Shown here piece by piece: positions 3,002-26,375 of a stretch of DNA of 64,000 nucleotides (positions within the stretch are counted from its first letter, which is position 1; every line of letters starts with the position of its first letter). The stretch covers positions 139,571-203,570 of the forward strand of contig CAYSAQ010000002.1 of assembly GCA_964429235.1 (NCBI GenBank). Reading direction: 5' to 3'. Under the pieces are notes generated by a model, which was given only the letters and a program-made list of their open reading frames with translations, searched no databases and was not told the origin of the DNA. A program made the translations under genes and the position numbers. The DNA comes from an uncultured Candidatus Marinamargulisbacteria bacterium (GTDB lineage: Bacteria > Margulisbacteria > Riflemargulisbacteria > GWF2-35-9 > DYQY01).

Positions 3002-3020
3002 ATCTATATATTATCACTAA

Positions 3021-3036
3021 TGTTTCACGTGAAACA
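3021..3036. promoter_or_regulatory. 16-bp perfect palindrome TGTTTCACGTGAAACA in the nadE/rsmG divergent intergenic region. Candidate operator.
   Basis: Exact palindrome with a CACGTG core, 20 bp upstream of the nadE start codon. Confidence 0.5.
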
Positions 3037-3147
3037 CCAACTTTCCACCTAATTTTAACTATTTCTATAATGATTTTAATGAAAATATTAAAATAATGTA
3101 TTTTTTCGCTACGTTCTCGCTTAAAAATTATACATTTTTGTGGCATA

Positions 3148-5388: not shown

Positions 5389-5405
5389 CTTACAGCAACT
5401 CAAAT

Positions 5406-6344
5406 ATGGACGTTTTAGAAACTATTAAAAAGACAAAAATTGTTGTAGCTCCCATGGCAGGAATCAGCGACCCTCCATTTAGAAGGCTCTGCAGAGATTT
5501 TGGCGCAAAACTATGCTACACAGAAATGATTTCTGCTGCCGGGGTAATGCTTGGCGATAAAAAAAGCAAAGTTTTTACTTTCATTAAAGATGAACACCCT
5601 ATAGTAGCTCAAATATTTGGCTCAGACCCTGATGCTATGCAATACGCTGCTAAATATTTTGAAGAGCAAGGTGCAGATATAATAGATATCAATCTTGGCT
5701 GCCCAGTAAAAAAAGTAGCAAAACAAAGTTCCGGCGCTGCTTTAGCTAGAGACTTGTTATTAACAGAAAAAACAATACAAGCAGTGGCTAAGGTAATAAA
5801 CATCCCTCTTTCGATAAAATTTCGACTTGGTTGGAGTAAAAACTTAGAGAATTATCTGGAATTATGTAAAATTGCACAAAATAGCGGTGTGTCCTTAATC
5901 TGCCTACATTCTAGATACGCAAATCAGATGTATTCTGGTGTTTCTGACTGGTCAAAAGTAAACGAAATGAGAAAACATTTCTCTGGCCTAATTATTGGAT
6001 CTGGGGATATAAATACTCCTGATGACATCTCACAAGCACTAGATTCTTATGATGTTGATGCTGTCATGCTCGGTCGAGGTGTTTGGGGTAATCCATGGCT
6101 TATAAGTGACTATTTAAAAAAAGATAGATTGTCTTTACATGAGACTATTTTAAGGCACTTTGAATACATGTCTGAATTCCATGGTGAAAAAAAAGCTGCT
6201 ATTTTATTTAGAAAATTTATTAGTAAATACATTAAAGGGCTGCCAAACTCTCAAAAACTTAGAATGATGGGGAATGCGGTTTCAACTAAAAGTGATTTAT
6301 TAGATTTACTAGAAGAACTTGGCGGAAAATGCCATGTCTTTTAG
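5406..6344 (+). CDS. dusB: tRNA-dihydrouridine synthase (Dus family, DusB-like).
   Basis: The N-terminus VAPMAGISDPPFRRLC is typical of Dus TIM-barrel enzymes. Confidence 0.8.
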   Translation: MDVLETIKKTKIVVAPMAGISDPPFRRLCRDFGAKLCYTEMISAAGVMLGDKKSKVFTFIKDEHPIVAQIFGSDPDAMQYAAKYFEEQGADIIDINLGCPVKKVAKQSSGAALARDLLLTEKTIQAVAKVINIPLSIKFRLGWSKNLENYLELCKIAQNSGVSLICLHSRYANQMYSGVSDWSKVNEMRKHFSGLIIGSGDINTPDDISQALDSYDVDAVMLGRGVWGNPWLISDYLKKDRLSLHETILRHFEYMSEFHGEKKAAILFRKFISKYIKGLPNSQKLRMMGNAVSTKSDLLDLLEELGGKCHVF

Positions 6345-6392
6345 TTAATAACTACCATTGATAGTAAGAAGCACACCAGCTAAACTACTCTT

Positions 6393-6839
6393 ATGGTAAG
6401 CATCGTACTATATGAACCAGAAATACCTCCAAACACGGGAAACATAGCTCGTCTTTGCCTAGCAACGAATACGCCCCTATATCTTATTGAGCCACTTGGC
6501 TTTTCTCTTGATGACAAGCATCTTAAGCGAGCTGGTTTAGATTATTGGCAACATGTTAACTACAGGGTAGTGAAAAGCTTACACGCTATACAGGATGAGT
6601 TTCCCGATAGCACCTTTTATTATCTATCTACTAAAGCTGAGAAAACTTACACAGAAGTTAATTATAAAGATTCTGATTTTCTTGTTTTTGGCCCAGAATC
6701 TAGAGGGTTACCAGAGTCTCTTATTTATAAAACAGGAACAGCGGTAACAATACCAATGTTTAATGAAAAAGTTCGAAGCATTAATCTGGCAACTAGTGTT
6801 GGAATCGTGCTATATGAAGCTATTCGGCAACTTTCTTAA
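6393..6839 (+). CDS. trmL: SpoU-class tRNA (cytidine/uridine-2'-O)-methyltransferase TrmL.
   Basis: 148 aa. YEPEIPPNTGNIARLC N-terminus and a C-terminal SAM-binding knot, as in TrmL/CspR. Confidence 0.75.
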   Translation: MVSIVLYEPEIPPNTGNIARLCLATNTPLYLIEPLGFSLDDKHLKRAGLDYWQHVNYRVVKSLHAIQDEFPDSTFYYLSTKAEKTYTEVNYKDSDFLVFGPESRGLPESLIYKTGTAVTIPMFNEKVRSINLATSVGIVLYEAIRQLS

Positions 6840-6933
6840 TCCACCAGTTTTTTTCCATGAATAAATAGTGGGAACTTTGGCGATATTATAATTGTCTTAA
6901 GTATACGTAAATAGTATTCAGGGGGAATAGAAT

Positions 6934-7272
6934 ATGGCTGATTTTATAAGTGGACAAAATGTTTTTAAAAGTAATGATTCTAAGCAATCGTTATTAATTA
7001 CTAACCGTAATGAAAAGTACTATCTTGGTGACAGAAAAACCTTTATGAAGGTTCTGGAAGAGTCTATAGAGCAAATTACTTTAGATCTTGCAGACCCAGA
7101 AGTAGAATCAATGGTTATCGATGGTGAGTTTCTAGAAGATAAAAGCGATCCTGGTGCATTATTCTTTGTAAACACAAAGCTTAATGAACTAAAGGACCTT
7201 AATAGAACTCTTGTTTCTACTTTTGATTTTTTAAAAGAAATAGAAAAAGAAGTATCAAGACTGATATCCTAA
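6934..7272 (+). CDS. Hypothetical acidic protein, 112 aa.
   Basis: ORF with an RBS-like GGGGGAAT upstream. No recognisable domain. Confidence 0.45.
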   Translation: MADFISGQNVFKSNDSKQSLLITNRNEKYYLGDRKTFMKVLEESIEQITLDLADPEVESMVIDGEFLEDKSDPGALFFVNTKLNELKDLNRTLVSTFDFLKEIEKEVSRLIS

Positions 7273-7276
7273 TATT

Positions 7277-8071
7277 ATGGTTATCCGTAAAGTAAATAAT
7301 ATTGATCTAACTAGGCAACTAAAGACTAATAACCTTGATGCCTATAAACAAGCACTTCAACAAGAATCGCAAACACAAGCAGATGCTAGATCTACTGCCG
7401 GTTCTAAAATCAAGTGGAATATCGTAAAAAACGATAAGGGCTCAACTAAGATTAATCCCCTTATGGAAACAGATCATGTAAAATTAAGCAGTATTAGGCA
7501 AATGGATAAGTCTGTAAGTGCCAATGTTGTTGCGCATAAAATGGGGTATAAAATTAATCTTCATGAAAAAATGGACATACTTAAAGATAAATATCTAAAA
7601 AACTTTTTACAGGGTAAATCACACAACTTTATGGTAGCAAAGTTTGCACAGCTTAAAACGGCCTTTTTATCACAAACGTTGGCCAACTTGGGCATGACTG
7701 CACCAGAGCTCCTAAAAATGCAAAAGAAAGCATTGAAAGAGGCTCAGGGAGAGAACGAGCTACTGTTTGAAGAGAACGAATACAACGAAGAGATGATATT
7801 TGTTATTGGGGGCTCTCCAAAGAAAATAAAAAAAGAAATTCAAATTATGGCAGAAATTAGACAACAGCTGGCTACTCAGATGTCAAAACTTGGAAAAGCT
7901 AGCTACTACAATCAAGAAAAAACGCTTTCTATAAAGCTACGTGCCTGTAAAAAAATTAAAGAAGAATTTCAAAAAGAACGCAATAACATTCAATATGTGC
8001 GAGATTATCACTTTGTTGGTAAAGGCGGCGTTACTTCTGAAAGAACTATTTTTGAGAAGATTACTTCTTAG
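7277..8071 (+). CDS. Hypothetical Lys/Gln-rich protein, 264 aa.
   Basis: ORF tightly following the previous one. No recognisable domain. Its end converges on, and overlaps, the end of the C39-like gene. Confidence 0.45.
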   Translation: MVIRKVNNIDLTRQLKTNNLDAYKQALQQESQTQADARSTAGSKIKWNIVKNDKGSTKINPLMETDHVKLSSIRQMDKSVSANVVAHKMGYKINLHEKMDILKDKYLKNFLQGKSHNFMVAKFAQLKTAFLSQTLANLGMTAPELLKMQKKALKEAQGENELLFEENEYNEEMIFVIGGSPKKIKKEIQIMAEIRQQLATQMSKLGKASYYNQEKTLSIKLRACKKIKEEFQKERNNIQYVRDYHFVGKGGVTSERTIFEKITS

Positions 8072-9123
8072 ACTAGTTTTATCGATTGCAAAGATTGATT
8101 CCTAGCTAAAATTGCATCCTCGTTAACTGGAATTATTTGTAATGGGGACTTGCCGGCACTTCCAGAAAAATAATAATCAACCTGTTCATTTTTTCTAGTT
8201 ATCACTTTTCTATACTTCTTTGAACTTGAAGCATCTGTCATTATATAATCACCTGACTTGAAAGCAGTAATAAGGACTACATGAGAACCGCCTCTAACGC
8301 CAACCATATAACACCCAGGTTTCAGCTTAAGTGATCCGTCTTCTTTCTTTAATTGGTTGTACTTTATGCCTTCAGGAAAAGAACGTTTATTATAACGAGA
8401 ATACTCAACTATATTTCTTTTATCTTCATTCTTCTCGCCACTATTAGTTCGATTATATTTGAAGAAATCATACAAAGGATGTGTTGCACCCATCTCTTCT
8501 CCTACTTGATGAGGCAACCTGTAGCAATCTGTTTTATTATCTGCCCCTGTATAAAGCTCATACTCCATACCTTCATAGCGATTTAAGGTTGTTAACATAC
8601 TGCGTATATAAGTGCTCATTGTTAGATTATCTAAAGCCTCTCGAATACTTGCAGTGGCAGAAGAGCTTGCGCTTGCTAGCCTTTTCCCGTTTGTTTTACC
8701 GCTACTTTTACTACCAAATAATCTACTAAAAAAAGGTCCTATTTTAGAAAAAAATCCTGCTTTTTTCTTAACTATCTTAACGCTCGCATCTTTACTTCCA
8801 CTGCTTTTTTTATTTTTCTGTTTTAAACTCTGCTCTGCTTTTCTTTCTAGAGAAAAAATAACCGAAGCGTTTAATTTCTTTCCTACAATTTGAGACTGCA
8901 TGCTTTTTATTTCATTACTAAGTATTGCTGTTCTCTCATTAGTGCCTGAAATCTTGTTTGTTTGTTTTAAAAAAGAACTCATTTCTTTTTTATCTATTGT
9001 TTTATTACCATCTGTATCTGCTTGGGATAAAAAAGCACCAACTTTAGTGCTATTGAAGTTGCCTCTTAAAAATTCTTTTCCACCGGTATATGCCTTTATT
9101 GTCATGTTGCACCTCGCTATCAA
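8068..9123 (-). CDS. Hypothetical protein with an N-terminal EF-hand/dockerin-like Ca-binding loop and a C-terminal C39-like (papain-fold) cysteine peptidase domain.
   Basis: DTDGNKTIDKKE loop near the N-terminus. A Lys/Ser-rich linker. The C-terminal segment has Cys (DCYRLPH), then GGSHVVLITAF, then DYIMTD, which resembles the Cys-His-Asp order of Peptidase_C39_2/CHAP-type domains. Confidence 0.5.
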   Translation of the reverse strand: MIARCNMTIKAYTGGKEFLRGNFNSTKVGAFLSQADTDGNKTIDKKEMSSFLKQTNKISGTNERTAILSNEIKSMQSQIVGKKLNASVIFSLERKAEQSLKQKNKKSSGSKDASVKIVKKKAGFFSKIGPFFSRLFGSKSSGKTNGKRLASASSSATASIREALDNLTMSTYIRSMLTTLNRYEGMEYELYTGADNKTDCYRLPHQVGEEMGATHPLYDFFKYNRTNSGEKNEDKRNIVEYSRYNKRSFPEGIKYNQLKKEDGSLKLKPGCYMVGVRGGSHVVLITAFKSGDYIMTDASSSKKYRKVITRKNEQVDYYFSGSAGKSPLQIIPVNEDAILARNQSLQSIKLV

Positions 9124-9165
9124 ACCTTATGTTAATATATCGAGATTTTTCTAAATATGTTGCAT

Positions 9166-9762
9166 TTATTTTTTTACAGAGTAACCAAAAGACCCTAATT
9201 TTTTACCTAAATCGTAGTATTCTCCATGGTTATAGGCTACTAGTCTTGCCCTGTCTAGCGCATACTTCCCGTCTTTGTTTATTAGATCTTCTCTAATTGA
9301 AGTGCCCACTACTTCTGCAATAAAACAGTCATGAGTACCAAGCTTTAATATTTGCTTTGTTTTGCATTCCAAACTAAGCGGGGAAATCGCTATTTGCGGT
9401 GTCTCTATTACACTGGATGCTGCTTTTTTTAATTTTAAAATAGACCATTTATCCATGTCCTTACCTGATCTAACTCCACAAAAATCCATCTCCCTAACCA
9501 TATTGCTATCTACCAGGTTAATAACAAATTCACCAGTATCTTTTATAATTTTATATGAGTGCCTAGATGGACGAATAGATATTGAAACCATTACTGGATC
9601 ACTACAAACTGTCCCCGCCCAAGCTATTGTAATAAGATTGTGATCTTGCGATTTTATGCCACAAGAGACCATTACTGCCGGAATTGGATATAAAAGGTTT
9701 GCTGGTTTTGTTGCTACTCTTTTTTTTGGTCTATGTGCTTGAGGTTTATTATATCTTTTCAT
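9166..9762 (-). CDS. Flavin reductase-like (FMN-binding split-barrel) domain protein.
   Basis: LYPIPAVMVSCG...ITIAWAGTV block typical of the flavin reductase-like family. Confidence 0.65.
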   Translation of the reverse strand: MKRYNKPQAHRPKKRVATKPANLLYPIPAVMVSCGIKSQDHNLITIAWAGTVCSDPVMVSISIRPSRHSYKIIKDTGEFVINLVDSNMVREMDFCGVRSGKDMDKWSILKLKKAASSVIETPQIAISPLSLECKTKQILKLGTHDCFIAEVVGTSIREDLINKDGKYALDRARLVAYNHGEYYDLGKKLGSFGYSVKK

Positions 9763-9770
9763 TTCATTCC

Positions 9771-10889
9771 TTAAAAATTCATTTTATAGGCAACCGAATA
9801 CGACTCATCGTTATCCCCTATTTTCTCATAATAAATAACAGAGCTTGTATAAGCATTTAAAGGATATGTAAGTGTTCCGCTAACCTTATAAGGAATATCT
9901 GGTCTTAGTAAAATCTGCTGATAAGACAACACCCCTGAAAAACCATTAATATCGTTTAAAGCCAACGCTCCCTTAAATACTGCGTCTGCATTATCATAGT
10001 CCTCATAACCAACACTTACAATCCCAAAAGGCATTACGCTGAGTTCGGCTCCAACAAAGTAGCCATTCATGGCGCTAGCTGAATAGTTCGAAATATCGAT
10101 TGGGGCTACCTCATATGAAGAATTAAAGAATCCTGGAACAAAGTTCTTTCCAAGCATTCTATACTCAGCTCTAACATCAAATATCTCTCCAAAATCCATC
10201 TTTGTTCCAAGTGCTAGAGCATTAGACTGATTTGATAATGAACCGTACTCCAGATATGCATCCATCCATGGCTGAATTAGCTTAAACCCCATATCAACTG
10301 AGTATGCTGAAACTCCTTTGTTAATTTTTGCATTACCACTTACAACGCCATCTGTCTCTGAAACATAGCTAACACCTGCGATTAATGGAGTATCAAGCCC
10401 GGGCATTTTAAACAAATCATAAGTTAATCTAGTTCCAACGACACCTGTGCCTGCAAACATGCTATATATTCCAACTGGCAGGAATTGTCTTGTATATGCT
10501 TTAAATCCCGCATTATTCATATTGAAATAGGTAGATACTGGCGCGGAATCATAAGAATCCATTATTAAACCATAGCCATATGTCTCGTTAGCTAGTCTTC
10601 CAAACCTTACACCCCACAAGCCATTATCATACTGTGTATACCTAAATTCTATTAACGATAAGCCTGGTGGCCGCTTGCTTTCAGGAAAAACCAGATTAAG
10701 CCCTGCTCCACAACTAAAATCATCTAAAACAAATTCCTGAGTAAAATGCATGTTAAGCGCATTCTGGCCTTCATGTGAAATCATAGAAAATACACCACCA
10801 CCACTTTGCAGCAAATCATTAGTTGATAAACTTCCATACCCTGCAAACGCTAAAGTAAAAAGAAATAAAATAATTAGCTTCTTCTGCAT
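9771..10889 (-). CDS. Outer-membrane beta-barrel protein with a signal peptide and C-terminal Phe.
   Basis: N-terminus MQKKLIILFLFTLAFAGYGS. Alternating amphipathic strands rich in Y/G/S. Ends ...AYKMNF. Confidence 0.55.
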   Translation of the reverse strand: MQKKLIILFLFTLAFAGYGSLSTNDLLQSGGGVFSMISHEGQNALNMHFTQEFVLDDFSCGAGLNLVFPESKRPPGLSLIEFRYTQYDNGLWGVRFGRLANETYGYGLIMDSYDSAPVSTYFNMNNAGFKAYTRQFLPVGIYSMFAGTGVVGTRLTYDLFKMPGLDTPLIAGVSYVSETDGVVSGNAKINKGVSAYSVDMGFKLIQPWMDAYLEYGSLSNQSNALALGTKMDFGEIFDVRAEYRMLGKNFVPGFFNSSYEVAPIDISNYSASAMNGYFVGAELSVMPFGIVSVGYEDYDNADAVFKGALALNDINGFSGVLSYQQILLRPDIPYKVSGTLTYPLNAYTSSVIYYEKIGDNDESYSVAYKMNF

Positions 10890-11147
10890 ATTGTTCTCCC
10901 TCGCTAATAAGTAATCATGGATGTAATTAATACCTTAACTGTATAAAAAAAAGTTAAAACTAGAGCTGAAACAAATAAATAAGATAATTTTCCCTGATCC
11001 ATAGCTAAATTATATTGTTAACTATCTTCGATAGCAACCATTCGTTTTACTAAGTATCCATATGCGTAAACAAACATCACCATAAAGTACTTGACGTAAG
11101 TTAAAAAGAGGTATAAGATAGTTTACGTAGAATAGTGGAGGTATAAA

Positions 11148-11552
11148 ATGAACAAACATGAAGGATTTAGCTTGCTTGAGTTACTAATTGCCCTTTCTTT
11201 ATTGGTTATTCTGAGCTCTTTTGTAATGCCAAATATTAAAAAAATACAAGATAAAAGCAACAATATGACTGCCGAAGTAAATATTAGAACCTTTCAAGCT
11301 TGCTTGGAAAACTACTTTCTAGAAAATAGCACATATCCCGCTGGCGACTTGAATGCTGGCGAGCTTTTTAGCTTACTTGCTGCAGATAATATTATAAAAA
11401 CTTGTCCAACAAACCCTTATACAAAAGCAGTCTATTCTGATTCTGACACAAAAGGAAAAGTCACCTATTCTTCAAGTGACGGCAATGACTATGACCTTAA
11501 ATTGTACTCAAGAGATGGAACAATCGTAATGCTGTTACTTAATAGCTTATAG
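11148..11552 (+). CDS. Prepilin-type N-terminal cleavage/methylation domain protein (pseudopilin or type IV pilin-like).
   Basis: MNKHEG/FSLLELLIALSLLVIL class III signal with Glu at +5. Confidence 0.75.
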   Translation: MNKHEGFSLLELLIALSLLVILSSFVMPNIKKIQDKSNNMTAEVNIRTFQACLENYFLENSTYPAGDLNAGELFSLLAADNIIKTCPTNPYTKAVYSDSDTKGKVTYSSSDGNDYDLKLYSRDGTIVMLLLNSL

Positions 11553-12587
11553 GTCTAACTCTTCGAGTATTGAGTTATATACTAAAAAGCCTTTGTTTGT
11601 AAGATGAACAAAGGCTTTGCCCATTATTATTAGTTCTGGGTATTTTCGTAGGACGTCATCAAAAAGCTTCTCATATGCTACTCCGGTTGTTGTTCTTAGA
11701 CCCATCATAATTTTTTCCATTTTTTGCTCTTTCTCGCTAAGATTATCTGTGTTTACTACTCTCTTTCCTGATAGATACTCTTCTATGTTCTTAATATTCT
11801 CAATACGAATTCCTTTGATCGTGGATACTGCACCAGCCCCTACCCCTAAATAATCCTGATAGCTCCAATATGCTTGGTTATGTTTACATTCATATTCAGA
11901 TTTTGAATAATTTGATATTTCATACCTAGCAAACTCCTTATCTCTTAGTTTAGAAACAACCTCTTCTGCTAATTTGCTTTGATTATCATCATCTATTGGA
12001 TGCTCGTCATATTTATTAGCTAAAGGAGTGTCTTCCTCTATTGTCAGTGAATAATAGGAAACATGCTTAATATTCTCAGTAATATTACTAATTTCTTTAA
12101 TAATGTCCTCTTTGGTTTGACCTGGTAAAGAATACATTAAATCTATGCCGATATTAGAAAAATACTTTCCTGCAATGGATAGCTTTTCCGGCACATTACA
12201 GCTTCTTTCTCTGCCAATATCTATTAGCTTCAAATCTTCAAAAGACTGTACCCCGACGCTCAGTCTATTGATTCCTGCGCTTACAAATTCTTTCATCTTC
12301 TGTGCTGTTATAGTCTCAGGATTACACTCAATGCTTACTTCGCATTGTTTTGTTAATTTAAGTTTACTTAGGATGTTATTTACTTGTTGTCCGGTTAACA
12401 GACTAGGCGTCCCTCCTCCAAAAAACACTGTTTCTAGAGGTTCGCCGTTGTATCTTTCAGTTATTTCATCAACTACTGCTGCAACATAATCCTCTCTTAC
12501 CGTCCCGTTACATGGAACTGAATAAAAGTCACAATAATCACATTTTGAATTGCAATATGGGATATGAAGGTAAAGGTGTTTTACCAT
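11547..12587 (-). CDS. hemW: Radical SAM protein of the HemN/HemW family (likely the heme chaperone HemW).
   Basis: CNSKCDYCDF CxxxCxxC motif near the N-terminus. Length 346 aa. Confidence 0.75.
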   Translation of the reverse strand: MVKHLYLHIPYCNSKCDYCDFYSVPCNGTVREDYVAAVVDEITERYNGEPLETVFFGGGTPSLLTGQQVNNILSKLKLTKQCEVSIECNPETITAQKMKEFVSAGINRLSVGVQSFEDLKLIDIGRERSCNVPEKLSIAGKYFSNIGIDLMYSLPGQTKEDIIKEISNITENIKHVSYYSLTIEEDTPLANKYDEHPIDDDNQSKLAEEVVSKLRDKEFARYEISNYSKSEYECKHNQAYWSYQDYLGVGAGAVSTIKGIRIENIKNIEEYLSGKRVVNTDNLSEKEQKMEKIMMGLRTTTGVAYEKLFDDVLRKYPELIIMGKAFVHLTNKGFLVYNSILEELDL

Positions 12588-12592
12588 TTAGG

Positions 12593-14389
12593 CTACTCGT
12601 CAGAAATACTTAAAATACATAGAAAAGCATCATCCGGAATCTCTACATTTCCAACACTTTTCATTCTTTTTTTACCCTCTTTTTGCTTTTCTAAGAGCTT
12701 TCGCTTTCTCGAAATATCACCACCATAGCACTTGGCTGTAACATTCTTTCTCAACGCCTTTATGGTTTCTCTAGAAATAATTTTGCTTCCGATAGACGCT
12801 TGCACCGGTATTTCAAACATTTGTCTATGTATTTGCTCTTTTAACTTCTTAACAAGTGCTCTCCCTCTAAAGAACGAGTGATCCCTATGACAAATAAATG
12901 AAAAAGCATCAACGATATCGCCCTTAAGCAAAATATCGACTTTAACTAAATCGGAATTTTCATAACCAGCCAATTCATAATCTAAAGAAGCATAGCCTTT
13001 GCTTAACTCTTTCATCTTGTTAAAGAAGTCTATAACTATCTCGTTAAGCGGTAAAACATAGTGAAGCACTACTCTTGTTTCAGTAATATACTCCATGTGA
13101 TCCAATTTGCCTCTTTTCTTGTTGCACAAGTCCATAATAGAACCTACATACTCGTTTGGAAGAACAATATTTGCCTTTACAATTGGCTCTTCTATACTCT
13201 CTATAAGCCCTCTGTCTGGATAGTTAGCTGGGTTATCGATAACCATCTGATTGCCATTTATCATATTAAGCCTATACTCAACACCTGGAGCTGTAGCTAT
13301 CATGTCTATATTATACTCTCTCTCAATACGCTCCTTTATAATCTCCATATGCAATAACCCAAGAAATCCACATCTAAACCCAAAACCAAGAGCCTTTGAT
13401 GTCTCTGGCACAAAGTGTAGCGAAGAATCATTTAGTCTAAGCTTTTGCAACGCTTCCCTTAGGTCTTCATAATTATCTGATATTACTGGATACAGTCCAC
13501 AAAAAACCATGGATTGTGGCTCTTTATAGCCTGGTAGTGGCACTAACGCCTCGCTACCTGCAACTGTTACGGTATCTCCAATTTTTACATCATCAATATT
13601 TTTAATGTTGCCTATTAAGTACCCAACTTCACCTGTTTTTAAAAAGCCTGTTTTTATCATGTTTGGTTTAAAATATCCTATTTCGGTTACCTCGTATTCG
13701 GCTTTAGACTGCATAAATTTTATTTTCTGCCCTTTTGCTATCTCGCCTTCAACGACTCTAACCATAACCTCAACACCCCTATAGCTGTCGAAATGAGAAT
13801 CAAACACTAGAGCCTTAAGACTATCCGCTTCCTTGCCAGTTGGAGGAGGAATGAGCTCTACAATCGCTTCTAAAACTGCATCGATACCCTCACCTGTCTT
13901 TGCGCTTACAGGAATATATCCTGAAGGTCCAAGAATAGATTCAATCTCTTTCATAACTTTTTCCGGCTCTGCTGCTGGAAGATCTATTTTATTAATCACT
14001 GGGATAATAGTTAGATCGTTCTCTATCGCTAAATAAATATTTGCCATTGTTTGAGCTTCTATTCCCTGAGTTGCATCTACTATTAAAAGCGCACCCTCAC
14101 AAGCTGCCAAGCTTCTTGATACTTCATATGTAAAATCAACGTGTCCGGGTGTGTCGATCAAATTAAGCATATACTCTTCGCCATCATTGGCGTCATATAA
14201 CATTCTTGCTGGCTGTAGTTTTATTGTAATACCTCGCTCTTGCTCAAGCTCCATAGTATCTAAAAGCTGTGCTTTCATGTCTCTTTTATCTATGGTTTTG
14301 GTAACCTCTAGCAACCTATCTGCAAGAGTAGATTTGCCGTGATCGATGTGAGCGATTATAGAAAAGTTTCTAATATTCTTTTGTTGCAT
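12593..14389 (-). CDS. lepA: Translation elongation factor 4 (LepA).
   Basis: [20 protein letters not shown] GTPase N-terminus. Length 598 aa. Confidence 0.9.
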
Positions 14390-14524
14390 GAGTACAATTC
14401 TACGGCACTAGAGGGATTTTGCCTAACATTTATTAAGGTTTAAAGGTTATCAAAGAGCGCTTTTTGCGTATAATTATTGTAATATAGGGACTGTTTTCTC
14501 TATATACTATTTTAAAGGGGCTGT

Positions 14525-17280
14525 GTGTTAGCTATTATGGGGGATTTTACAATTTTAAAAAGACTGCAAATTATCATACTTGTTCTTACATCATTGCTTT
14601 CCTTTTCTATAGCAAGTGCACCACTTTCTTATGTAATTGATGCAGGCGATCATAGCTTTGTTGTAAAAGAAAACGGAACAGTTTATATAGCAGGGAAGAA
14701 TGAAGGCAATGTAATTGGAACAACAGTTTCACCAAACGTATTTACTTTCCAATACAGCACTAATAGTGCTAATACCACCAGCACTCTAAACTCTATAGCC
14801 GGTGGAACTCTTCACAGCTTAATAAAGAAAAGCGATAACTCCCTCTGGGGAACTGGATATAATGGAACGGGGCAGCTTGGAAATAATGACGACACTAATG
14901 TCCTTGCATGGGAAATTCTTACATCAAATATTGTTACGATTGCTGCAGGTGCTTACCATAGTTTAGGGATACTAGCTGACGGAACTTTAGTTGGAACTGG
15001 GTACAACCTTAACGGACAGCTTGGAACACTCAATGCTGTTAATCCAATATCATGGGTGTCTCTTGGTCTAAACGGAGTTAAAAAAATAGCCGCTGGAGAT
15101 GCCTTTAGCTTGGCGCTACAAACCAATGGGACTTTATGGGCAACTGGGGCAAATAACGATGGCCAATTTGGTGATGGAACAACCACAAACAGTCTTTCCT
15201 GGATACAAATAACTACTAATGTGAAAAACATTGCGGCTGGCTACAGCCATAGTTATATTGTTAAAAATGATAATAGTGGTTGGGTCTGTGGTCACAATGG
15301 ATTTGGCCAACTTGGCCTTGGAAACAAACAAGACAGACTCTCGTGGACACCTTCGACAATTACTGGCGATGTTCATATCATTGCAGGAGACCACCATACA
15401 TTTGTTCTTACAGACGCAGGATCTCTTGTTGGTGTTGGACGAAATGATCATGGTCAATTAGGGCTAGGTAATACAACAGATATACTAAGCGTTACTGTTA
15501 TCACGGATAATGTTAAAAGTGTTGCTGCAGGAAACAGACATAGCCACATTATTAAACAAACTGACACCTTATGGGCTGCTGGCTACAATGGATTTGGACG
15601 CTTGGTACTACAAGCACAAACGATTCCATAGCATGGACACTGGTTCCTTCATTAAACACTCCTCCAAACGTAACCGCTAGCACTAATATGACTTTCCATG
15701 CAGGAGACCTTACTACATTCTCTGCTTATATTTTTGATGTTGACGACGATAACTTATCAATTAATTGGACTCTAATATCAAGCCCTCTCGGTAGCACTCT
15801 TCCTTCTGCTCTATCTACAATGAGTGCGTTTGTCATCTCAGCTGACTTAGTCGGAACATACAGCATTCAGCTATTAGTTTCTGATCAATTAACTTCCGTA
15901 ATAAACACAATTTCTGTTATAGCAACCAATACAGCACCTTCTGCAAATGCTGGAACAAATAGAATATTTCCTGTTTTTAGCTTAGTCGAATTATCCGCAC
16001 TTAATAGTACGGACAACGAGGACGATACTCTAACATATACATGGGCAATTTTAGACAAACCAGCTTCTAGCAATCAAATTATTAGCCCCAACAATCTAAT
16101 AACAACATCTGTTTTATTAGATAGCATTGGTACCTATGATATATTATTAGCTGTTTCTGATAATTGGAGCATATCTACCACATCTATCACTATAAAATCA
16201 GTGCCTCCATTTGATCCATTCGCTCCAACTTATTCTATTCGGCTATCACATCAAAATGTCTCCAGCCATCTAACCGTAATGATCTCTTTTAATGAAACAA
16301 TGATTGCTAGCCCTTTAGGCATATTTATAGACTATGACACTGGTGCCAGCCAAGATATCACAAGTCAGGGAGACTGGATTACCTCTAACTATATGAGTTG
16401 GATAGCTACGGTAACCCCATCTATTCGGGCTGGTTTAATTGCAACCGTTTCCGTGCGACTTGCTTATGGCACAGACGGCAACAGGGTTAGCCAAGGCAAT
16501 TCAAAAACAGCTACTTACTACATTCTTCCTTATCTGGTAACATCAAACACGGCAACCGGTCTCACTGTTGATGTGGACCTTCCTTATGGTGCCGTTTCTG
16601 TGGACGTGACTCCAATAATTACCTTTTTTAGCACCATCCCGTCAACTGATACAATTATTCCTTCTAAAGACTCAGCAACAAGTCGCAGCATTGTTTGGGT
16701 AACATACCTAGATGCTTTTGAATTTTCATTAGCTCCTACCGGTAGTTACATTGGACAGCCAACCCCACAAATACAATCTATTGCAAACTTTTATCTATCC
16801 TTCGCTGGCGTTTCGTCAACAGACAAGCTAGTAAGAATATACACTTACAGCGCATCCGCTGATAGGTGGTCAGAGGATGGGATAATTTCAATTTCTATTA
16901 CCCGAGATAACGTTTGCTTTACTACAGCAAAACAAGGCTTATTTGCGCTGGTTCTAGTAGAAGCTGAGCCAATTAGATCAACCGAAAACCTTGTTATATC
17001 AAGAGCGCTTTCTGCACCAAATCCTTTCAATCCTGGAGCCGCTGAAACATCTCATATTGGTTTTTATCTAAATAAAGCAGCAACTATAAAGCTCTTTGTT
17101 CACAATATTGCAGGGTCTGTAATATATTCTGATTACGCATCCTTTAATGATGGATACAATGAATTCGTTTGGAATGGCCGTGACCTAAAAGGCAGAATAG
17201 TTGGTAATGATTTGTATTTTGCTTACATAGTTGCTGCTGCTGGTAACTCTAAAGTAGTAAAAATCGTGGTGATGAAATGA
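14525..17280 (+). CDS. Secreted RCC1-repeat / Ig-like-domain protein with a T9SS-type C-terminal sorting domain. It is split into two ORFs (14525..15631 and 15571..17280) by an apparent 1-nt frameshift near 15605.
   Basis: N-terminal signal peptide. About seven GxNxxGQLG(xG) RCC1-like repeats. Frame 2 ends ...GYNGFGRLV and frame 1 continues LGTTSTNDSIAW, which keeps the repeat register. The C-terminus PNPFNPGAAETSHIGFYLNKAATIKLFVHNIAGSVIY...WNGRDLKG matches the Por-secretion-tail/FlgD-Ig-like pattern. Confidence 0.6.
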
Positions 17281-17939
17281 AATACAAACTAATAAGCATT
17301 ATCCTTCTCCTCGGTTTGAGCATATGTTCTGAATTCGTCAATAATGGAAGCTGGCTGGAAATAATACCTGATTCAAGAGCTGCTGCAATGGGTGGTGCAA
17401 ATACGGCAATCGCTTCATCTGCCTATGCTATCTATTGGAACCCTGCACTGCTTCATAACCAACATAATGCACAAGTTTCATTTATAGACCTTAGAGAAGG
17501 TCAGCTAAACTATTTATCTATGGCCTATGCTTTTCCGCTGGCTAATAACACCTTTGGCATAAGCGTTTATTACCTTGCATCTGGGGCTATTGAAGAAACG
17601 ATTTATCAAAGTGGCCGACCTCTTCAAATAGGAACTATGCCAGGACTTACATACCTGCTTGTTTCTGTTGGTTTCTCAACTAATCTCTCTGGCTTTCAAA
17701 TAGGCATAACAGAAAAAATACTTTCACAAACACTAGCAAACGAAAGAAGTACTGGCATTGGTGTTGATGCTGGAATATTCTACCCTATGGACTCAATTGT
17801 GCTTGGCGCTTCCCATGCAATTATCCCTATACGAACTAAATGGACAACTGAAACAAAAGAAACTCTCCAGGGGCATACTCGAGCTGGAGTTGGGTGTCAA
17901 ATAGTCCAAGACCTAATAATGGAATTGGATATGAATTAA
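17277..17939 (+). CDS. Outer-membrane protein with a FadL/PorV/PorP-like N-terminus, translationally coupled to the T9SS-CTD cargo gene. Possibly truncated.
   Basis: ATGA overlap with the upstream stop. Signal peptide. DSRAAAMGGANTAIASSAYAIYWNPALL resembles the GMGGA...NPA hatch motif of FadL-family and T9SS PorV/PorP barrels. Another frame (about 17882..18061) continues and ends ...RFGSASPF. Confidence 0.45.
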   Translation: MKYKLISIILLLGLSICSEFVNNGSWLEIIPDSRAAAMGGANTAIASSAYAIYWNPALLHNQHNAQVSFIDLREGQLNYLSMAYAFPLANNTFGISVYYLASGAIEETIYQSGRPLQIGTMPGLTYLLVSVGFSTNLSGFQIGITEKILSQTLANERSTGIGVDAGIFYPMDSIVLGASHAIIPIRTKWTTETKETLQGHTRAGVGCQIVQDLIMELDMN

Positions 17940-18182
17940 CAGGCAACAATCCTTATAAAAACAACAAATTCAAGGGTAATTTGGTTGACGCTATTGTTGA
18001 ATTTATAAAACCTTTCTTGCCAAAGAAAAACAACCGTTTTGGCTCTGCAAGTCCTTTTTAAAGATAGTTTTTATTAGCTTATGGCCCCCTGTTCTATTGA
18101 CCTGCGTCTCTTATTTTCTTAAATTGCTTATAACCTTATATAACATTAATAATTCTCCTTCACGTTTTCCTCAAAATAAGCG

Positions 18183-18830
18183 CTACTTCGAAAATTTATC
18201 ATTAAATATTTTTGTAATTATTTGTTGCCAGTTTTTTGCAATATAGCCTGTATATCCAGGCAAAACTCTATTTATAACATCTAATTGTATTGGCAATCCA
18301 ACTTCGGCGAACATATTTAGATCATTTATACTGTCTCCCACAGCAGCAGCATTGTCTTTGCTAATACCTATTATATTTAGCACACTCCGAACAACATCAC
18401 CTTTGCCTTCAAACCCATAATCTAGGCTTATTTCTCCTGTTAATTTCTTGTCTTTTACTATCACTTCATTGGCAAAATAGCCAGCTAGGTTATAATTATC
18501 AACAATGTATTTTGCAAGCTGTGCTACTCCGTTAGAAATCAAATATACCGAGATATTATTAACTTTGCAGGTTTCAAAAAACTCATCTAATTCTGAGTGA
18601 AGCGTCATGCTTTCGATTGCATGATTAAATAATTCTTCGCTTGCACCTCGCCAAGCTGCTACATCTAATCTAGCAAATTCAGCATAATCGATTTCTTTAT
18701 TGCGATACATTCTGAGATATTTCTCGCCTAAGTTGTCCCAAGTTCCACATAGCTTATGCATTCTTTCCCAAATATAATCACCATAATGAAGAGTTCCGTC
18801 TACATCTAAGAAAATAGCCTCTAGCGACAT
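18183..18830 (-). CDS. HAD-superfamily hydrolase (HAD-IB, phosphoserine phosphatase-like).
   Basis: FLDVDGTL motif I near the N-terminus and a VGDSINDLNM motif IV. Confidence 0.7.
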   Translation of the reverse strand: MSLEAIFLDVDGTLHYGDYIWERMHKLCGTWDNLGEKYLRMYRNKEIDYAEFARLDVAAWRGASEELFNHAIESMTLHSELDEFFETCKVNNISVYLISNGVAQLAKYIVDNYNLAGYFANEVIVKDKKLTGEISLDYGFEGKGDVVRSVLNIIGISKDNAAAVGDSINDLNMFAEVGLPIQLDVINRVLPGYTGYIAKNWQQIITKIFNDKFSK

Positions 18831-19838
18831 TTAGTGTGATTTCTTTGCAGCCAACATTCCACAAGCAGCATTGATATCTGAACCTTCGCTTCTTCGTAAT
18901 GTTGCATTGATTCCTCTATCTAATAAAATCTTTTGAAACCTTTGAGCTCTGGTTGATGTCTTATATTTTCCTTCTGCTGCGTTATATGGAATAAGGTTTA
19001 CGTGAAACCCAGTACCTTTAACAAGAAATATTAACTCTTGAGCATCGCTATCTTTATCGTTTATGTCTTGTAGCAATGTATATTCCAAGGTTACCCGCCT
19101 GCCGCTTTCTTCCATGTATCTATGAACAACGTCCAAAAGCTTAAAGAGCGGATTTGCTTTATTAGCAGGAACTATCTCGCTTCTTTTTTCTTCATCTGCT
19201 TGATGAATTGATACGGCTAGGTTGAGTCTTATGCCTTTTTCAATTAAAGTCTCTATACCTCTTATAATGCCCACTGTTGAGACAGTAAATCTTCTAATGC
19301 CTATTTGTGCGCCAAATGGATCGTTTAGTATTGCAATGGACTTCAACACGTTATCTAGATTTAAGAGTGGCTCGCCCATTCCCATGTAAACCACGTTATC
19401 TATTTTATGCCCTTCTCTGCTTGCTAAAATATACTGAAAAACAATTTCTTCTGTTGTAAGGTTTCTTTTAAAACCCATATTTCCTGTAGCACAAAAAGTG
19501 CAGCCTAACGCACAACCTACTTGTGAGGATACGCATAAAGTAGTCCTGTCTCTACTCTTTATAACAACGCACTCTATGGTCTCATTATCTGGATATGTTA
19601 AAACATACTTTATGGCACCACTGCTTTCAACCTTTTCAAAATCATAATGTGATAATAAGTAATTACCTTCTAGCATCTCTCTTTCAGGCTTACTTATACT
19701 AGTTATATCCTGCCAAGAATCTGGCGTTTTCGTATGTAACCATCTATAAATTATCTTTGTCTTATAAGGCTTGATGCCTTTTGCTGTTAGCTCTTCTTGA
19801 AGCTCCTCTAATGTGTATCCGTATATTCTATGTTTCAT
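18831..19838 (-). CDS. rlmN: 23S rRNA (adenine2503-C2)-methyltransferase RlmN (radical SAM, RlmN/Cfr family).
   Basis: CALGCTFCATG radical-SAM cluster motif. Typical RlmN length and C-terminal Cys. Confidence 0.8.
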   Translation of the reverse strand: MKHRIYGYTLEELQEELTAKGIKPYKTKIIYRWLHTKTPDSWQDITSISKPEREMLEGNYLLSHYDFEKVESSGAIKYVLTYPDNETIECVVIKSRDRTTLCVSSQVGCALGCTFCATGNMGFKRNLTTEEIVFQYILASREGHKIDNVVYMGMGEPLLNLDNVLKSIAILNDPFGAQIGIRRFTVSTVGIIRGIETLIEKGIRLNLAVSIHQADEEKRSEIVPANKANPLFKLLDVVHRYMEESGRRVTLEYTLLQDINDKDSDAQELIFLVKGTGFHVNLIPYNAAEGKYKTSTRAQRFQKILLDRGINATLRRSEGSDINAACGMLAAKKSH

Positions 19839-21036
19839 TGTTATTTATTACCTTTCTAACTAAAAGACTGTCTATTTGATCTGTTTTCAACATCATCGAT
19901 ATCTGGTATCCATTGTGCGCTACCTCTGTTGGGATCCCTGTTTTAGTATCTATCATTTCAGCTATCTTCACTTCAATATCTGCATTAATATCAGGTGAGA
20001 TTATTGTTATATTATCACCTGTTTCGATCTTATCCCTTACCTCTATTGTTAATTTCTGACCATCCGAGCTAGCTACTCCAACCATTTTAGCTTTTTTAAT
20101 ATAGCCGGATGAATCAAAATTGAAACGACCCTTTTCTCCATCATAAAACCCAGTGCTATAATCCCTATGAGAAACTAATTCAAGCTCCTCAAGACATCTT
20201 TCTCTTACAATGTCAGAATCACTAGCATCAATCATCGCTCGATAGGACCTTACAACATTTGCGACATAGTAACTTGTCTTATTTCTTCCTTCTATTTTTA
20301 ACGAACTAATCCCCATATCCACGATTTCTTTTACATAATTAATCAAACACATATCTTTGGAATTCATTATATGAACGCCTGCATCTGTTTCTTCTATTTC
20401 AATATCTGCTCTTAGGTCGTCTCTCTTCAAGTCATAGCTCCACCTACAAGGCTGTGCGCATTCACCTCTATTAGCATCTCTTCCAAGGAAATAATTGCTC
20501 AAGTGACATCTGCCTGAATAGCTCATGCACATTGCGCCATGTACAAACATTTCCAGTTCTATATCTGTCTTCTCTAATAGGTCTTTAGTTTCTTCTCTTG
20601 TAAGCTCTCTAGCTAATATTACCCTGCTTACACCCTGTGTTTTCCAGAAATTAATAGCTTCTATATTAAGTGTATTTGCTTGTGTAGATAAGTGATATTC
20701 TGCATCAGGAAAAGCTTCTTTTAATACGAAAAAAATTCCCAAATCAGAAACAATAAAAGCATCTGTTCCTATCTCTCTAATTTCTTCTATTCTAGATTTT
20801 AATTGCTCAATATCTTCTTGATGTGCGAATAAGTTCATAGCTAAATAATGTTTCTTGCCCATAGAATGTGCCAATTCTACTGCTCGTTTTAACTCATCTA
20901 TACTGGATTCTGCTTTCTTAGTTCTTCTTAAAGAAAGACCTTCAAGCCCTTGATATATAGCATCTGCACCATACTTTAAAGCGAAATATGCGTTTTCATA
21001 ATTGCCTGCTGGTGCTAATAATTCTGGCTTATTCAT
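19828..21036 (-). CDS. Peptidase U32 family protein (YegQ/RlhA/TrhP-like RNA-hydroxylase family).
   Basis: N-terminus PELLAPAGNYENAYFALKYGADAIY and the conserved Cys cluster (CMSYSGRCHLS, ECAQPCR) typical of U32. Confidence 0.75.
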   Translation of the reverse strand: MNKPELLAPAGNYENAYFALKYGADAIYQGLEGLSLRRTKKAESSIDELKRAVELAHSMGKKHYLAMNLFAHQEDIEQLKSRIEEIREIGTDAFIVSDLGIFFVLKEAFPDAEYHLSTQANTLNIEAINFWKTQGVSRVILARELTREETKDLLEKTDIELEMFVHGAMCMSYSGRCHLSNYFLGRDANRGECAQPCRWSYDLKRDDLRADIEIEETDAGVHIMNSKDMCLINYVKEIVDMGISSLKIEGRNKTSYYVANVVRSYRAMIDASDSDIVRERCLEELELVSHRDYSTGFYDGEKGRFNFDSSGYIKKAKMVGVASSDGQKLTIEVRDKIETGDNITIISPDINADIEVKIAEMIDTKTGIPTEVAHNGYQISMMLKTDQIDSLLVRKVINNNET

Positions 21037-24879: not shown

Positions 24880-24961
24880 CTTTTCCGTTCTTACATTTTT
24901 GTACTTACATATTTAATCTATAGTTTCTGCGTTGCCAAAAAAAAAAATCTTTGTTACGATA

Positions 24962-24985
24962 CTTATCAACAATGAGTTATCCACA
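24962..24985. promoter_or_regulatory. DnaA boxes immediately upstream of the dnaA start: TTATCCACA (perfect, 24977..24985) and TTATCAACA (24962..24970).
   Basis: 9-mers read directly from the sequence. Established DnaA-box consensus TTATCCACA. Confidence 0.7.
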
Positions 24986-24995
24986 AGTAAATAAC

Positions 24996-26375
24996 ATGGC
25001 TATAAGCATCATAGATGTATGGGAAAAAGTTGATGGCTCCCTTCAGGAAAAGCTGGGCAAAATTTCCTATTCAACATTTCAAAAGGCCGTTAAGCCAATA
25101 TCTTTTTTAAATAATGCACTTGTATTGGGTGTTCCTAATAATTTTATGAAAAAATGGGTTAATGATAAGTGTGATTTTTATATAAAACAATCGGTATTAC
25201 AAAACTTTGATATGAACATTATTATTGAATTAACAATAAATGATCAAATGTATCAGCAAATAGAAGAAGACACGAGAGAAGACGTCGCTATTTCTGAACA
25301 AAGTGTTTCTTCGTCACATCGTCAAGTTTTTGACATTCAACCTCAAGCCTCTGCATATATGTTAAACCCTAAATATACTTTCGACTCTTATGTTGTTGGA
25401 CAGAGTAATAGATTTAGTCATGCTGCTTCACTTGCTGTTTCAAAGGCACCTGGTAAAGCATATAACCCTTTCTTTATTTATGGAGGTGTCGGGCTTGGCA
25501 AAACTCACCTTATGCATGCTATTGGTCATAAAGTAAAAGATATTCATCCTTATTTGAAGGTTATTTATATAACTGCTGAAGAATTTACCAATGATTTAAT
25601 AGGTTCACTTCAAAAAGGTAAAATTATGGAGTTTAGGGAAAGATATCGTAATATAGATCTCTTAATGGTTGATGATATTCAGTTTATTGCTGGTAAAGAA
25701 AAAACAGAAGAAGAATTCTTTCATACTTTCAACTATTTATACCAACTTAATAAACAAATTATTCTTACTTCTGATAGATTACCAAAAGACATCCCTTCAA
25801 TTCAAGATAGGCTTAAATCTAGATTTGAATGGGGACTCTCTGCAGATATCCAAGCTCCAGATTTAGAAACTAGAATGGCAATCTTGTATAAAAAACTAGA
25901 ACCTGAGTTCCAGAATATTCCTCAAGATGTTATTTACTATATTGCTTCTCAAATTCCTGGTAATGTAAGGGAATTAGAAGGTGCTTTAATAAAAATTATT
26001 GCTTATTCTTCACTAATTAACCAAGAAATAAATATTAATTTAGCTAAAGATGTTATTAAAGATATTGTTAAAAAAAATAACAAAAAACCAATATCTATTT
26101 CTAAAATAAAAAAAGCTGTATCTGAGTATTATGATATTGAATATGAAAACCTATCAGCTAAAATTAGAACTAAAGAAATTGCGCATGCTAGACAAGTTGC
26201 TATGTATTTATGTAGAGATCTTACTAATTTTTCTTTGCCTAAGATAGGGGAAAAATTTGGTGGTAGAGATCACACTACCGTAATGCATGCTTGTGATAAA
26301 ATTAGGACTGAAATTAAAAAGAATCATGATTTAAAAAGTGCTTTAAATCAAATTAAAACTACTCTTATAGATTAA
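24996..26375 (+). CDS. dnaA: Chromosomal replication initiator DnaA. The start is placed at the ATG at 24996, downstream of the DnaA boxes, rather than at the ORF-track start of 24951.
   Basis: Walker A GGVGLGKTHL. DnaA signature domain IV. Followed by dnaN. Confidence 0.9.
   Translation: MAISIIDVWEKVDGSLQEKLGKISYSTFQKAVKPISFLNNALVLGVPNNFMKKWVNDKCDFYIKQSVLQNFDMNIIIELTINDQMYQQIEEDTREDVAISEQSVSSSHRQVFDIQPQASAYMLNPKYTFDSYVVGQSNRFSHAASLAVSKAPGKAYNPFFIYGGVGLGKTHLMHAIGHKVKDIHPYLKVIYITAEEFTNDLIGSLQKGKIMEFRERYRNIDLLMVDDIQFIAGKEKTEEEFFHTFNYLYQLNKQIILTSDRLPKDIPSIQDRLKSRFEWGLSADIQAPDLETRMAILYKKLEPEFQNIPQDVIYYIASQIPGNVRELEGALIKIIAYSSLINQEININLAKDVIKDIVKKNNKKPISISKIKKAVSEYYDIEYENLSAKIRTKEIAHARQVAMYLCRDLTNFSLPKIGEKFGGRDHTTVMHACDKIRTEIKKNHDLKSALNQIKTTLID

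Follow-up and report, generated by a model that had tools for sequence, protein, structure and literature searches.

The two overlapping open reading frames between positions 14525 and 17280, ORF1 and ORF2, are one gene split by a single-nucleotide indel, on evidence far beyond what chance would give. We consider the most probable explanation, at roughly three chances in four, to be a genuine loss-of-function deletion that has recently become fixed in a single 918-codon gene, which would have encoded a lineage-specific accessory surface protein. Our data directly show the continuity of the gene, the reproducibility of the lesion, the lack of recoding signals and the absence from relatives of the two-gene cassette that this gene forms with its downstream neighbor.

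Two open reading frames and the conceptually repaired gene

The ORF list has both frames where the original prediction placed them, and an insertion test bears out the single broken gene that it proposed: any one-base insertion within 15585-15630 gives one uninterrupted 918-aa ORF. The overlap of the two frames is 61 nt, not the 60 nt first counted. The features of the locus are listed below, with residues numbered on the repaired protein.

14447-14474, + strand: promoter-like site upstream of the gene, TTATCA-16-TATAAT (a consensus match only, at 10 of 12 positions)
14525-15631, + strand: ORF1, the 5' fragment of the broken gene, frame 2, 368 aa
14630-15642, + strand: seven-bladed RCC1-like beta-propeller, residues 36-373, spanning the frameshift
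15571-17280, + strand: ORF2 as mechanically listed, frame 1, 569 aa
15599-15600, + strand: putative site of the one-nucleotide deletion, GGA C[A]G CTT GGT, in the Gln codon of the blade 7 GQLG motif, placed from the motif and the codons of other blades
15670-15918, + strand: PKD (Ig-like) domain 1, residues 383-465, a marginal match (PF00801, 26.0 bits, cut-off 23.5)
15928-16179, + strand: PKD (Ig-like) domain 2, residues 469-552, a marginal match (PF22352, 28.1 bits, cut-off 27)
16180-16968, + strand: orphan region of about 260 aa, without detectable relatives
16999-17277, + strand: C-terminal domain of beta-sandwich type bearing a PNPFNP motif, distantly related to the T9SS type A sorting domain and FlgD-Ig fold
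17277-17939, + strand: gene for a PorV/PorQ-family outer-membrane protein of 220 aa, its start overlapping the ORF2 stop (ATGA)

ORF1 begins with a GTG codon at 14525, with AAGGGG 6-11 nt upstream, while gene callers choose the ATG at 14537; its product carries a Sec-type signal peptide as judged by eye (KR, a hydrophobic core, and ASA followed by P). It encodes RCC1-like blades 1-7 as far as GFG, after which nine out-of-frame residues, LVLQAQTIP, precede the stop. The true coding continuation lies in frame 1 and occupies about 15600 to 17280. No Shine-Dalgarno sequence precedes the ATG at 15571, and the N-terminus of ORF2 is not a signal peptide. In order, the repaired 918-aa protein consists of a signal peptide, the seven-bladed RCC1-like propeller, two PKD domains, the orphan region of ~260 aa, and a C-terminal domain that resembles, at a score under the curated cut-off, a T9SS type A sorting domain.

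The propeller and the site of the deletion

The propeller was analyzed with the Pfam profiles for RCC1-like domains (PF25390 WD40_RLD, PF00415 and PF13540). On ORF1 alone, the WD40_RLD match scores 251.4 bits and reaches residue 363 (profile position 333), and RCC1_2 is matched in six stretches; on the joined protein the WD40_RLD match rises to 277 bits (cut-off 150) and extends to residue 377 (profile position 347), so that joining the ORFs adds about 26 bits. The repaired protein also scores above the curated cut-offs for RCC1_2 (142 bits against 22) and RCC1 (93.5 bits against 21.7). An alignment to 15 RCC1 domains from bacteria is colinear across the junction and sets the post-junction residues TTSTNDSIAWTLV against the family consensus GDGTTxxRxxPVxV. 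An AlphaFold model of the repaired propeller (pLDDT 86.8, pTM 0.86) has 28 strands in seven repeats, and a confident beta-strand on SIAWTL (residues 368-373), encoded in frame 1 past the junction, forms the last of them. The domain belongs to one gene because the RLD profile, the 15-domain alignment and the AlphaFold strand all run past the junction. As proposed, the indel lies in the GQLG motif of the seventh-blade RCC1 repeat.

That the switch of frame is a one-nucleotide indel is upheld by these results; its proposed position, at a GG near 15605, is better moved about 5 nt upstream on the evidence of the blade codons. In blades 2 and 3 the GQLG motif is encoded by GGA CAG CTT GGA, while blade 7 reads GGA C-G CTT GGT, and because of this correspondence the lesion is best modeled as loss of the A from a CAG (Gln) codon after 15599. 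The premature stop follows 31 nt downstream of the deletion.

Reproducibility of the junction and competing explanations

The break recurs in all of the organism's public assemblies. The exact truncated ORF1 is encoded by 12 contigs and the exact ORF2 by nine, the N-terminus of the latter (MGCWLQWIW...) being callable only from the frameshifted allele. The junction is identical (100%) at six loci in five datasets from three assembly sources (ENA ERZ27316115; Logan SRR7529149 and SRR5458598; JGI 3300022826 and 3300005909). Polymorphism amounts to 1 SNP in 13 kb; these datasets may derive from a single site or study and a single near-clonal population, making them independent libraries but perhaps not independent lineages. 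The window, by which we mean the whole 64-kb stretch of DNA analyzed, is 95% coding, includes unbroken ORFs of 2594 aa and 1245 aa, and contains no other split gene, which speaks against an error-prone assembly. A 77-nt same-strand overlap at 44030/44250, considered as a second frameshift, proved to consist of an HU-like gene and, after it, an SSB-like gene whose mechanically listed start lies too far upstream.

An isolated frameshift in a metagenome-assembled genome is by default suspected to be a sequencing or assembly artefact concealing an intact gene, and assembly error was one of the three options offered by the original prediction. That reading is now largely refuted and we regard it as highly improbable: the same junction recurs in JGI, MEGAHIT-style ENA and Logan assemblies from at least five runs or samples, quite apart from the 12 contigs with truncated ORF1, the site is not a homopolymer, and the 64 kb hold no other frameshift. 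Least probable of all is that programmed -1 ribosomal frameshifting or other recoding lets the existing sequence give a full-length product. The move from frame 2 to frame 1 is indeed in the -1 direction, and ORF2 is open over 569 codons; however, there is no canonical slippery heptamer (X_XXY_YYZ) in any frame within 15562-15631, and the overlap contains no homopolymer of four or more bases, on which transcriptional slippage could act, and no repeat of three or more units. The predicted downstream RNA fold is not significant (z = -0.88, with an MFE of -23.4 kcal/mol where shuffled sequences average -20.5), no orthologue is available to show conservation, and a near-universal Gln codon is destroyed in the manner of a simple deletion. 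The programmed or phase-variable switch suggested earlier therefore finds no heptamer, homopolymer, repeat or fold in its favor.

Switching could also operate at the level of the population, with the indel as an on/off variant and the intact allele either rare or carried by strains that the samples missed, since consensus assemblies hide minority alleles. We judge this very unlikely: the site offers no simple-sequence repeat or homopolymer for reversible slippage, and ORF1 is truncated in all 12 contigs. A homology search of 5.8 billion clusters returned no intact protein of ~914-918 aa, which is weak evidence because ORF1 itself was found there neither by exact look-up nor among the matches of that search. 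Somewhat less remote, and still unlikely, is a functional truncation, in which the 368-aa Sec-exported propeller, lacking the stalk and the sorting domain, still works in soluble form in the periplasm or after release, and ORF2 is silent. The signal peptide is retained in ORF1, as are 27 of the 28 propeller strands, and the allele is fixed in every sample seen. Against this, the lost strand is part of a confidently modeled propeller and is replaced by nine unrelated residues, the product without its C-terminal domain has no evident route over the outer membrane, and fixation in a near-clonal population does not imply selection.

Recent pseudogenisation, the remaining option of the original prediction, is the best explanation once the others are weakened in this way. 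The 918-codon gene would have lost a single base, most probably the A of CAG at 15599/15600. The intact product would have been exported by the Sec route, with the propeller as a ligand-binding head and the two PKD domains as a stalk, followed by the orphan beta-rich region and the sorting-type domain; this architecture would fit a cell-surface binding protein or adhesin. At present, translation would stop at 15631 and give a signal peptide, a propeller without its 28th strand, and nine junk residues. The remaining 557 codons are presumably not productively expressed, because they lack a ribosome-binding site and a signal peptide, and the gene would thereby have lost its function. ORF2 carries no second lesion over its 569 codons, in a genome of 35% GC, which argues that the event is recent; its still being open would mean either that the mutation is very recent or that the region is under some constraint. 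The lack of any second lesion is also the only notable difference from ordinary single-base-indel pseudogenes, which likewise have an isolated deletion in a non-repetitive codon, an early stop, no recoding signals, and an accessory gene missing in relatives.

The C-terminal domain, the downstream gene and relatives

The Ig-like domains expected after the propeller are borne out as two PKD domains, both above the gathering score but marginal. In an AlphaFold model of ORF2 residues 23-569, made from the single sequence without an alignment, the orphan region is predicted to be mostly beta, at unusable confidence (pLDDT 38). The C-terminal domain had been called a T9SS CTD. It does resemble bona fide CTDs; however, it scores 15.2 bits on TIGR04183, below the curated cut-off of 23 (E 0.016), and the profile search of the repaired protein reported no match to PF18962. 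Its matches to the T9SS M6-like (1.4e-5), PorZ (2e-4) and PorU (1e-3) models are confined to the C-terminal ends of those models, and FlgD_ig is matched at 0.005. Its identity to a Lewinella CTD that itself scores 38.9 bits on TIGR04183 is 40% over 57-59 aa, a paralogous CTD is found on the 2594-aa protein in the window, and the domain occupies the extreme C-terminus of a protein with a Sec signal, the signal being judged by eye.

The gene immediately downstream encodes a protein that matches the N-terminal two-thirds of the PorV/PorQ family and, at 220 aa against about 300-330 aa, differs from it in lacking the C-terminal strands. NF033709, the family model, is broad, and a match to it does not alone show a T9SS; the downstream protein matches profile positions 6-163 of 326 at 6.4e-23, its 81.8 bits falling short of the cut-off (90), whereas its relatives (292-330 aa) cover positions 5-326 and four of the five tested pass the cut-off. 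About 70 C-terminal residues are missing: the protein covers positions 9-229 of 300 in a family HMM built for this analysis, and a 298-aa relative (P0259) runs 69 residues past its end. Neither the family HMM nor tblastn found a remnant of the missing strands downstream of the gene. A 55-aa ORF at 17894-18061 was considered as a frameshifted PorV-like C-terminus and rejected, the fused construct giving no longer profile match. The RCC1 gene and this neighbor, a pair that might be likened to T9SS cargo with its SprF/PorP-type partners, form a lineage-specific two-gene cassette, which is probably dispensable and decaying because the partner gene is also truncated.

The repaired full protein found only RCC1-domain relatives, at no more than 46% identity, in a protein homology search, its last 547 aa showed similarity to PKD domains and nothing else, and scans of genome and metagenome collections returned only CTD-level matches in Lewinella-type proteins. 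The closest Margulisbacteria, in which LepA is 81% identical and synteny on the lepA side is kept, have no homologue of either cassette gene in their lepA neighborhoods; LepA homologues also served to identify the organism itself. These searches suggest that no orthologue exists.

The propeller itself has many relatives. With the model as query, the top Foldseek matches were UVR8 (4dnw, TM score 0.85) and the RLDs of RPGR, HERC2 and RCC1, the group as a whole lying at TM 0.74-0.85 with probability 1.0. These eukaryotic domains share the seven-bladed fold and the GQLG/HS repeat signature, but are only 17-27% identical, whereas the present domain is secreted and fused to PKD and sorting domains; we found no evidence of a GEF or photoreceptor function for it. 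The description of the propeller as eukaryote-like is thus apt for the fold and for nothing beyond it, and does not imply transfer from eukaryotes, because the RCC1 family is abundant in bacteria. Nor is it uncommon, as had been supposed, for an RCC1 propeller to be secreted by a T9SS route: the combination of such a propeller with a T9SS sorting domain is frequent among bacteria. Our search returned 5470 bacterial RCC1 proteins, many with PF18962/TIGR04183 sorting domains, for example in Chryseobacterium, and an RCC1 protein with a sorting domain in Flavobacterium psychrophilum (THC0290_2385) was detected on the wild-type surface and not on that of gliding- and secretion-deficient gldD and gldG mutants (PMC5682007). 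The T9SS type A proteins of Chryseobacterium (P0021, P0026 and P0030) have propellers 33-35% identical to ours, wider matches reaching 29-46%. Such surface proteins share with the repaired protein an N-terminal signal, Ig-type spacers and a C-terminal sorting-type domain of ~90 aa with a PNPF motif; the present case differs in its host, Candidatus Margulisbacteria and not Bacteroidota, in the sub-cut-off score of its CTD, in its orphan middle of ~260 aa, and in the frameshift.

The T9SS is usually confined to the Bacteroidota/FCB group, outside which the Margulisbacteria lie. At least two CTD-type proteins, this RCC1 protein and the one of 2594 aa, are encoded in the window, with PorV/PorQ-family outer-membrane partners beside the putative cargo; the large ORFs of the 64-kb window gave no matches to T9SS core components, and the library searched held no paper pairing Margulisbacteria with T9SS. 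It is conceivable, at rather long odds, that Margulisbacteria use a T9SS-like C-terminal sorting domain and that this locus is the remnant of a cargo-shuttle gene pair belonging to an undescribed surface-display route. For annotation, the two ORFs should be recorded as a single frameshifted pseudogene rather than two hypothetical proteins, and the break should be left in place, not 'corrected' as though it were an assembly error. The locus would be a clean case of a surface protein, specific to its lineage, that was inactivated very recently in an environmental population that is nearly clonal. It has little significance beyond annotation, the only wider point being that sorting-domain and PorV/PorQ-like proteins are present in a Margulisbacteria genome.

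A gene split by a frameshift

The propeller gene is carried by two overlapping ORFs, and profile searches of the fused protein place two PKD domains after the junction.

14525..15631, + strand: ORF1, the 5' fragment, a mechanical ORF of 368 aa in frame 2
15571..17280, + strand: ORF2, the 3' fragment, a mechanical ORF of 569 aa in frame 1
Repaired residues 383-465, + strand: PKD domain 1
Repaired residues 469-552, + strand: PKD domain 2

The ORFs overlap by 61 nt, and one extra base anywhere between 15585 and 15630 is enough to join them in a single ORF of 918 aa, the conceptually repaired protein, as expected from the 1-nt indel of the original prediction. The fused protein matches the Pfam family WD40_RLD with 277 bits (cut-off 150 bits) over residues 91-377, spanning the junction at 360/361. 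ORF1 by itself scores 251 bits, with a match ending at residue 363 and profile position 333 of 363; the 14 post-junction residues thus lengthen the match by 14 profile positions and raise its score by about 26 bits. Repaired blade 7 (LWAAGYNGFGxLGTTSTNDSIAWTLV) is colinear with the consensus of 15 aligned bacterial RCC1 domains (LWAxGxNxxGQLGDGTTxxRxxPVxV). An AlphaFold2 model derived from this alignment (pLDDT 86.8, pTM 0.86) predicts a propeller of seven repeats and 28 strands, whose last strand, SIAWTL (residues 368-373), is encoded downstream of the break; in the PDB, Foldseek matched the model to UVR8 (TM 0.85), the RLDs of RPGR, HERC2 and HERC1, and RCC1. The Pfam match proposed earlier as a check, the alignment and the model all cross the junction, far above chance, confirming that ORF1 and ORF2 are one split gene.

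In blades 2 and 3 the G-Q-L-G codons are GGA CAG CTT GGA, and blade 7 reads GGA CGC TTG GTA CTA, i.e. GGA C-G CTT GGT ACT A. In the simplest reconstruction, the A of the CAG glutamine codon would have been lost after position 15599, and putting it back there restores GFGQLGTTSTNDSIAW. The GG at 15604/5, where the indel had originally been placed, also restores the frame (GFGRLG), but with Arg in the place of the Gln found in the other blades and in most aligned relatives. The lesion lies in neither a homopolymer nor a repeat, and the frameshift is a single-base deletion of the ordinary kind.

C-terminal domain and downstream partner

The last ~95 residues of the repaired protein (PNPFNP...FNDGYNEF...) form a C-terminal domain (CTD) whose matches to the T9SS-dependent M6-like (1.4e-5), PorZ (2e-4) and PorU (1e-3) models are confined to their C-terminal ends; it scores 17.3 bits on FlgD_ig and 15.2 bits on TIGR04183, below the cut-off of 23. 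A Lewinella (Bacteroidota) protein of 1344 aa has a C-terminus that is 40% identical to it over 57-59 aa and that passes the TIGR04183 cut-off with 38.9 bits. By its sequence the domain is thus best described as a divergent relative of the T9SS type A sorting domains, below the threshold for curated membership; the T9SS CTD of the original prediction is a sub-threshold match. A second protein of the window, of 2594 aa, ends (YPNPF...) in a paralogous domain, with 33% identity over 97 aa and 22.5 bits on TIGR04183 against the same cut-off, indicating that this sorting-type domain is reused in the genome.

48893-56677, + strand: 2594-aa ORF, no Pfam family, weak OmpL47-type match only
17277-17939, + strand: PorV/PorQ-like gene, 220 aa, start overlapping the ORF2 stop (ATGA)

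The PorV/PorQ-like product matches NF033709 (PorV/PorQ) at 6.4e-23 and 81.8 bits, below the cut-off of 90, and only over profile positions 6-163 of 326; full-length relatives span the whole profile, four of five above the cut-off. Among 1.84 billion representatives, its relatives usually have 292-330 aa. The nearest, P0259 (298 aa, 43% identity), aligns only to residue 229 and continues for 69 more residues. An HMM made for the family from 90 relatives has 300 positions, of which the product covers 9-229, the match running as far as the stop codon; this HMM finds no remnant of the missing C-terminus in any downstream frame. The partner is probably the second defective gene of the cassette, and its shortening relative to its relatives fits a cassette in decay.

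RCC1-like domains abound in bacteria, and the original idea that secreted RCC1 propellers on a T9SS-like route are uncommon finds no support, since many of the 5470 bacterial RCC1-like matches (E <= 1e-5, among 8000 candidates scored) bear PF18962/TIGR04183 sorting domains. One such protein, from Flavobacterium psychrophilum, is found on the surface of the wild type and not of gldD/gldG mutants (PMC5682007); it resembles the repaired protein in joining an RCC1 propeller to a C-terminal domain, but its CTD is TIGR04183, whereas the CTD here falls below that cut-off. No paper connecting Margulisbacteria with T9SS was found in the literature searched, and the RCC1 architecture together with PorV/PorQ-family genes in a Margulisbacteria genome is a modest novelty, as is the orphan middle region of the RCC1 protein.

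Recurrence and cause of the lesion

Twelve contigs encode the truncated ORF1 exactly (364 aa when started at the ATG at 14537, with ...LVLQAQTIP at its end), and nine encode ORF2 exactly; the N-terminus of ORF2, MGCWLQWIW, is encoded before the indel, in a frame other than that of any intact gene. Six loci from public assemblies match the window at 100% identity, each with the exact 81-nt junction string. These are assembled contigs from five datasets and three assembly sources:

ENA ERZ27316115
Logan SRR7529149
Logan SRR5458598
JGI 3300022826
JGI 3300005909

ENA ERZ27315402 k141_24549 has 1 mismatch in 13,001 bases against window 1-13001, and the other compared loci show 100% identity; the source organism recurs in public data as a near-clonal population, essentially clonal across datasets.

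The intact protein would be Sec-exported, with the CTD carrying or anchoring it across or at the outer membrane, and PKD and beta-rich domains as the stalk on which the RCC1-like propeller is displayed. From this architecture and analogous Bacteroidota proteins, we infer that it may have been a binding or adhesin-type surface protein. As the gene now stands, its sole possible product would be a propeller of 368 aa that has a signal peptide but lacks the last strand; the stalk and sorting domain would be silent.

We consider a recent, fixed pseudogenising deletion, one of three causes initially put forward, the best explanation (probability about 0.76), the lesion recurring in six loci and no recoding signal being found. 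That the truncated propeller is functional and its shortening tolerated is unlikely, and that an intact allele persists unsampled, for instance as a minority allele beneath the assemblies, is considerably less likely still. An assembly or sequencing artefact, also proposed originally, is very unlikely given the exact junction in six loci from five datasets and three assembly sources and a 64-kb window that is 95% coding, with ORFs of 2594 and 1245 aa unbroken and no second frameshift, the one other long same-strand overlap being an over-extended start.

The least probable reading is recoding. Both frames are open from 15562 to 15631, but this interval contains no X_XXY_YYZ heptamer in any frame and no run of at least four identical bases or short tandem repeat, and the predicted folding of the 136 nt downstream is no stronger than that of shuffled sequences (z = -0.88). 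The programmed or phase-variable switch suggested at the outset therefore has no support. No Shine-Dalgarno was found before the ORF2 ATG, nor a signal peptide after it or after the next in-frame starts (15688, 15820), so that a separately translated ORF2 product would stay in the cytoplasm, where an outer-membrane sorting CTD is useless. With pseudogenisation as the preferred reading, the locus should be annotated as a single pseudogene rather than as two genes, and the frameshift should not be polished away as an error.

Genomic setting

No orthologue of the RCC1 protein was found in 5.8 billion protein clusters, species-representative genomes or JGI metagenome contigs, where similarities were only at the level of the RCC1, PKD or C-terminal domains. 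The clustered collection lacks even the exact 364-aa ORF1 product, by look-up and by homology search, although it is on 12 contigs; absence from that collection is thus weak evidence. This product has no precomputed Pfam record.

12593-14389, - strand: LepA gene, by homology

LepA shares 81-83% identity with proteins labelled Candidatus Margulisbacteria. Those relatives (GCA_028706105.1 and others) have the same gene order on the far side of lepA, whereas on the near side they have a different 217-aa gene and then peptidase U32, marking a local variable spot. Between lepA and peptidase U32 (12593-21036) lie the RCC1 gene, the PorV-like gene, HAD and rlmN here, and the single unrelated 217-aa gene in the closest relatives. 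Because tblastn of the closest Margulisbacteria lepA neighbourhoods found no homologue of the RCC1 or PorV-like protein, the two genes are a lineage-specific insertion between lepA and HAD/rlmN.

The cassette lies ~9 kb from dnaA (24951-26375), which with dnaN and recF follows a 268-nt gap (segment 24682-28727). Together with gidB-parA-parB at 3148-5388, the dnaA, dnaN and recF genes suggest that the window covers the chromosomal origin region. A 1245-aa ORF (60073-63810, - strand) has no Pfam or NCBIfam match; the last residue of its product (...GLMFSGKLIF) is aromatic, resembling an outer-membrane beta-barrel signature, and the product could be a large outer-membrane protein of no classified family. 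A 548-aa protein resembling FliG in its C-terminal half and, weakly, FliL in one segment (44959-46605), a GspF/PilC-like platform protein (58970-60076) and a GspG-like pseudopilin (11148-11552) are scattered motility or secretion parts of a poorly characterised lineage.
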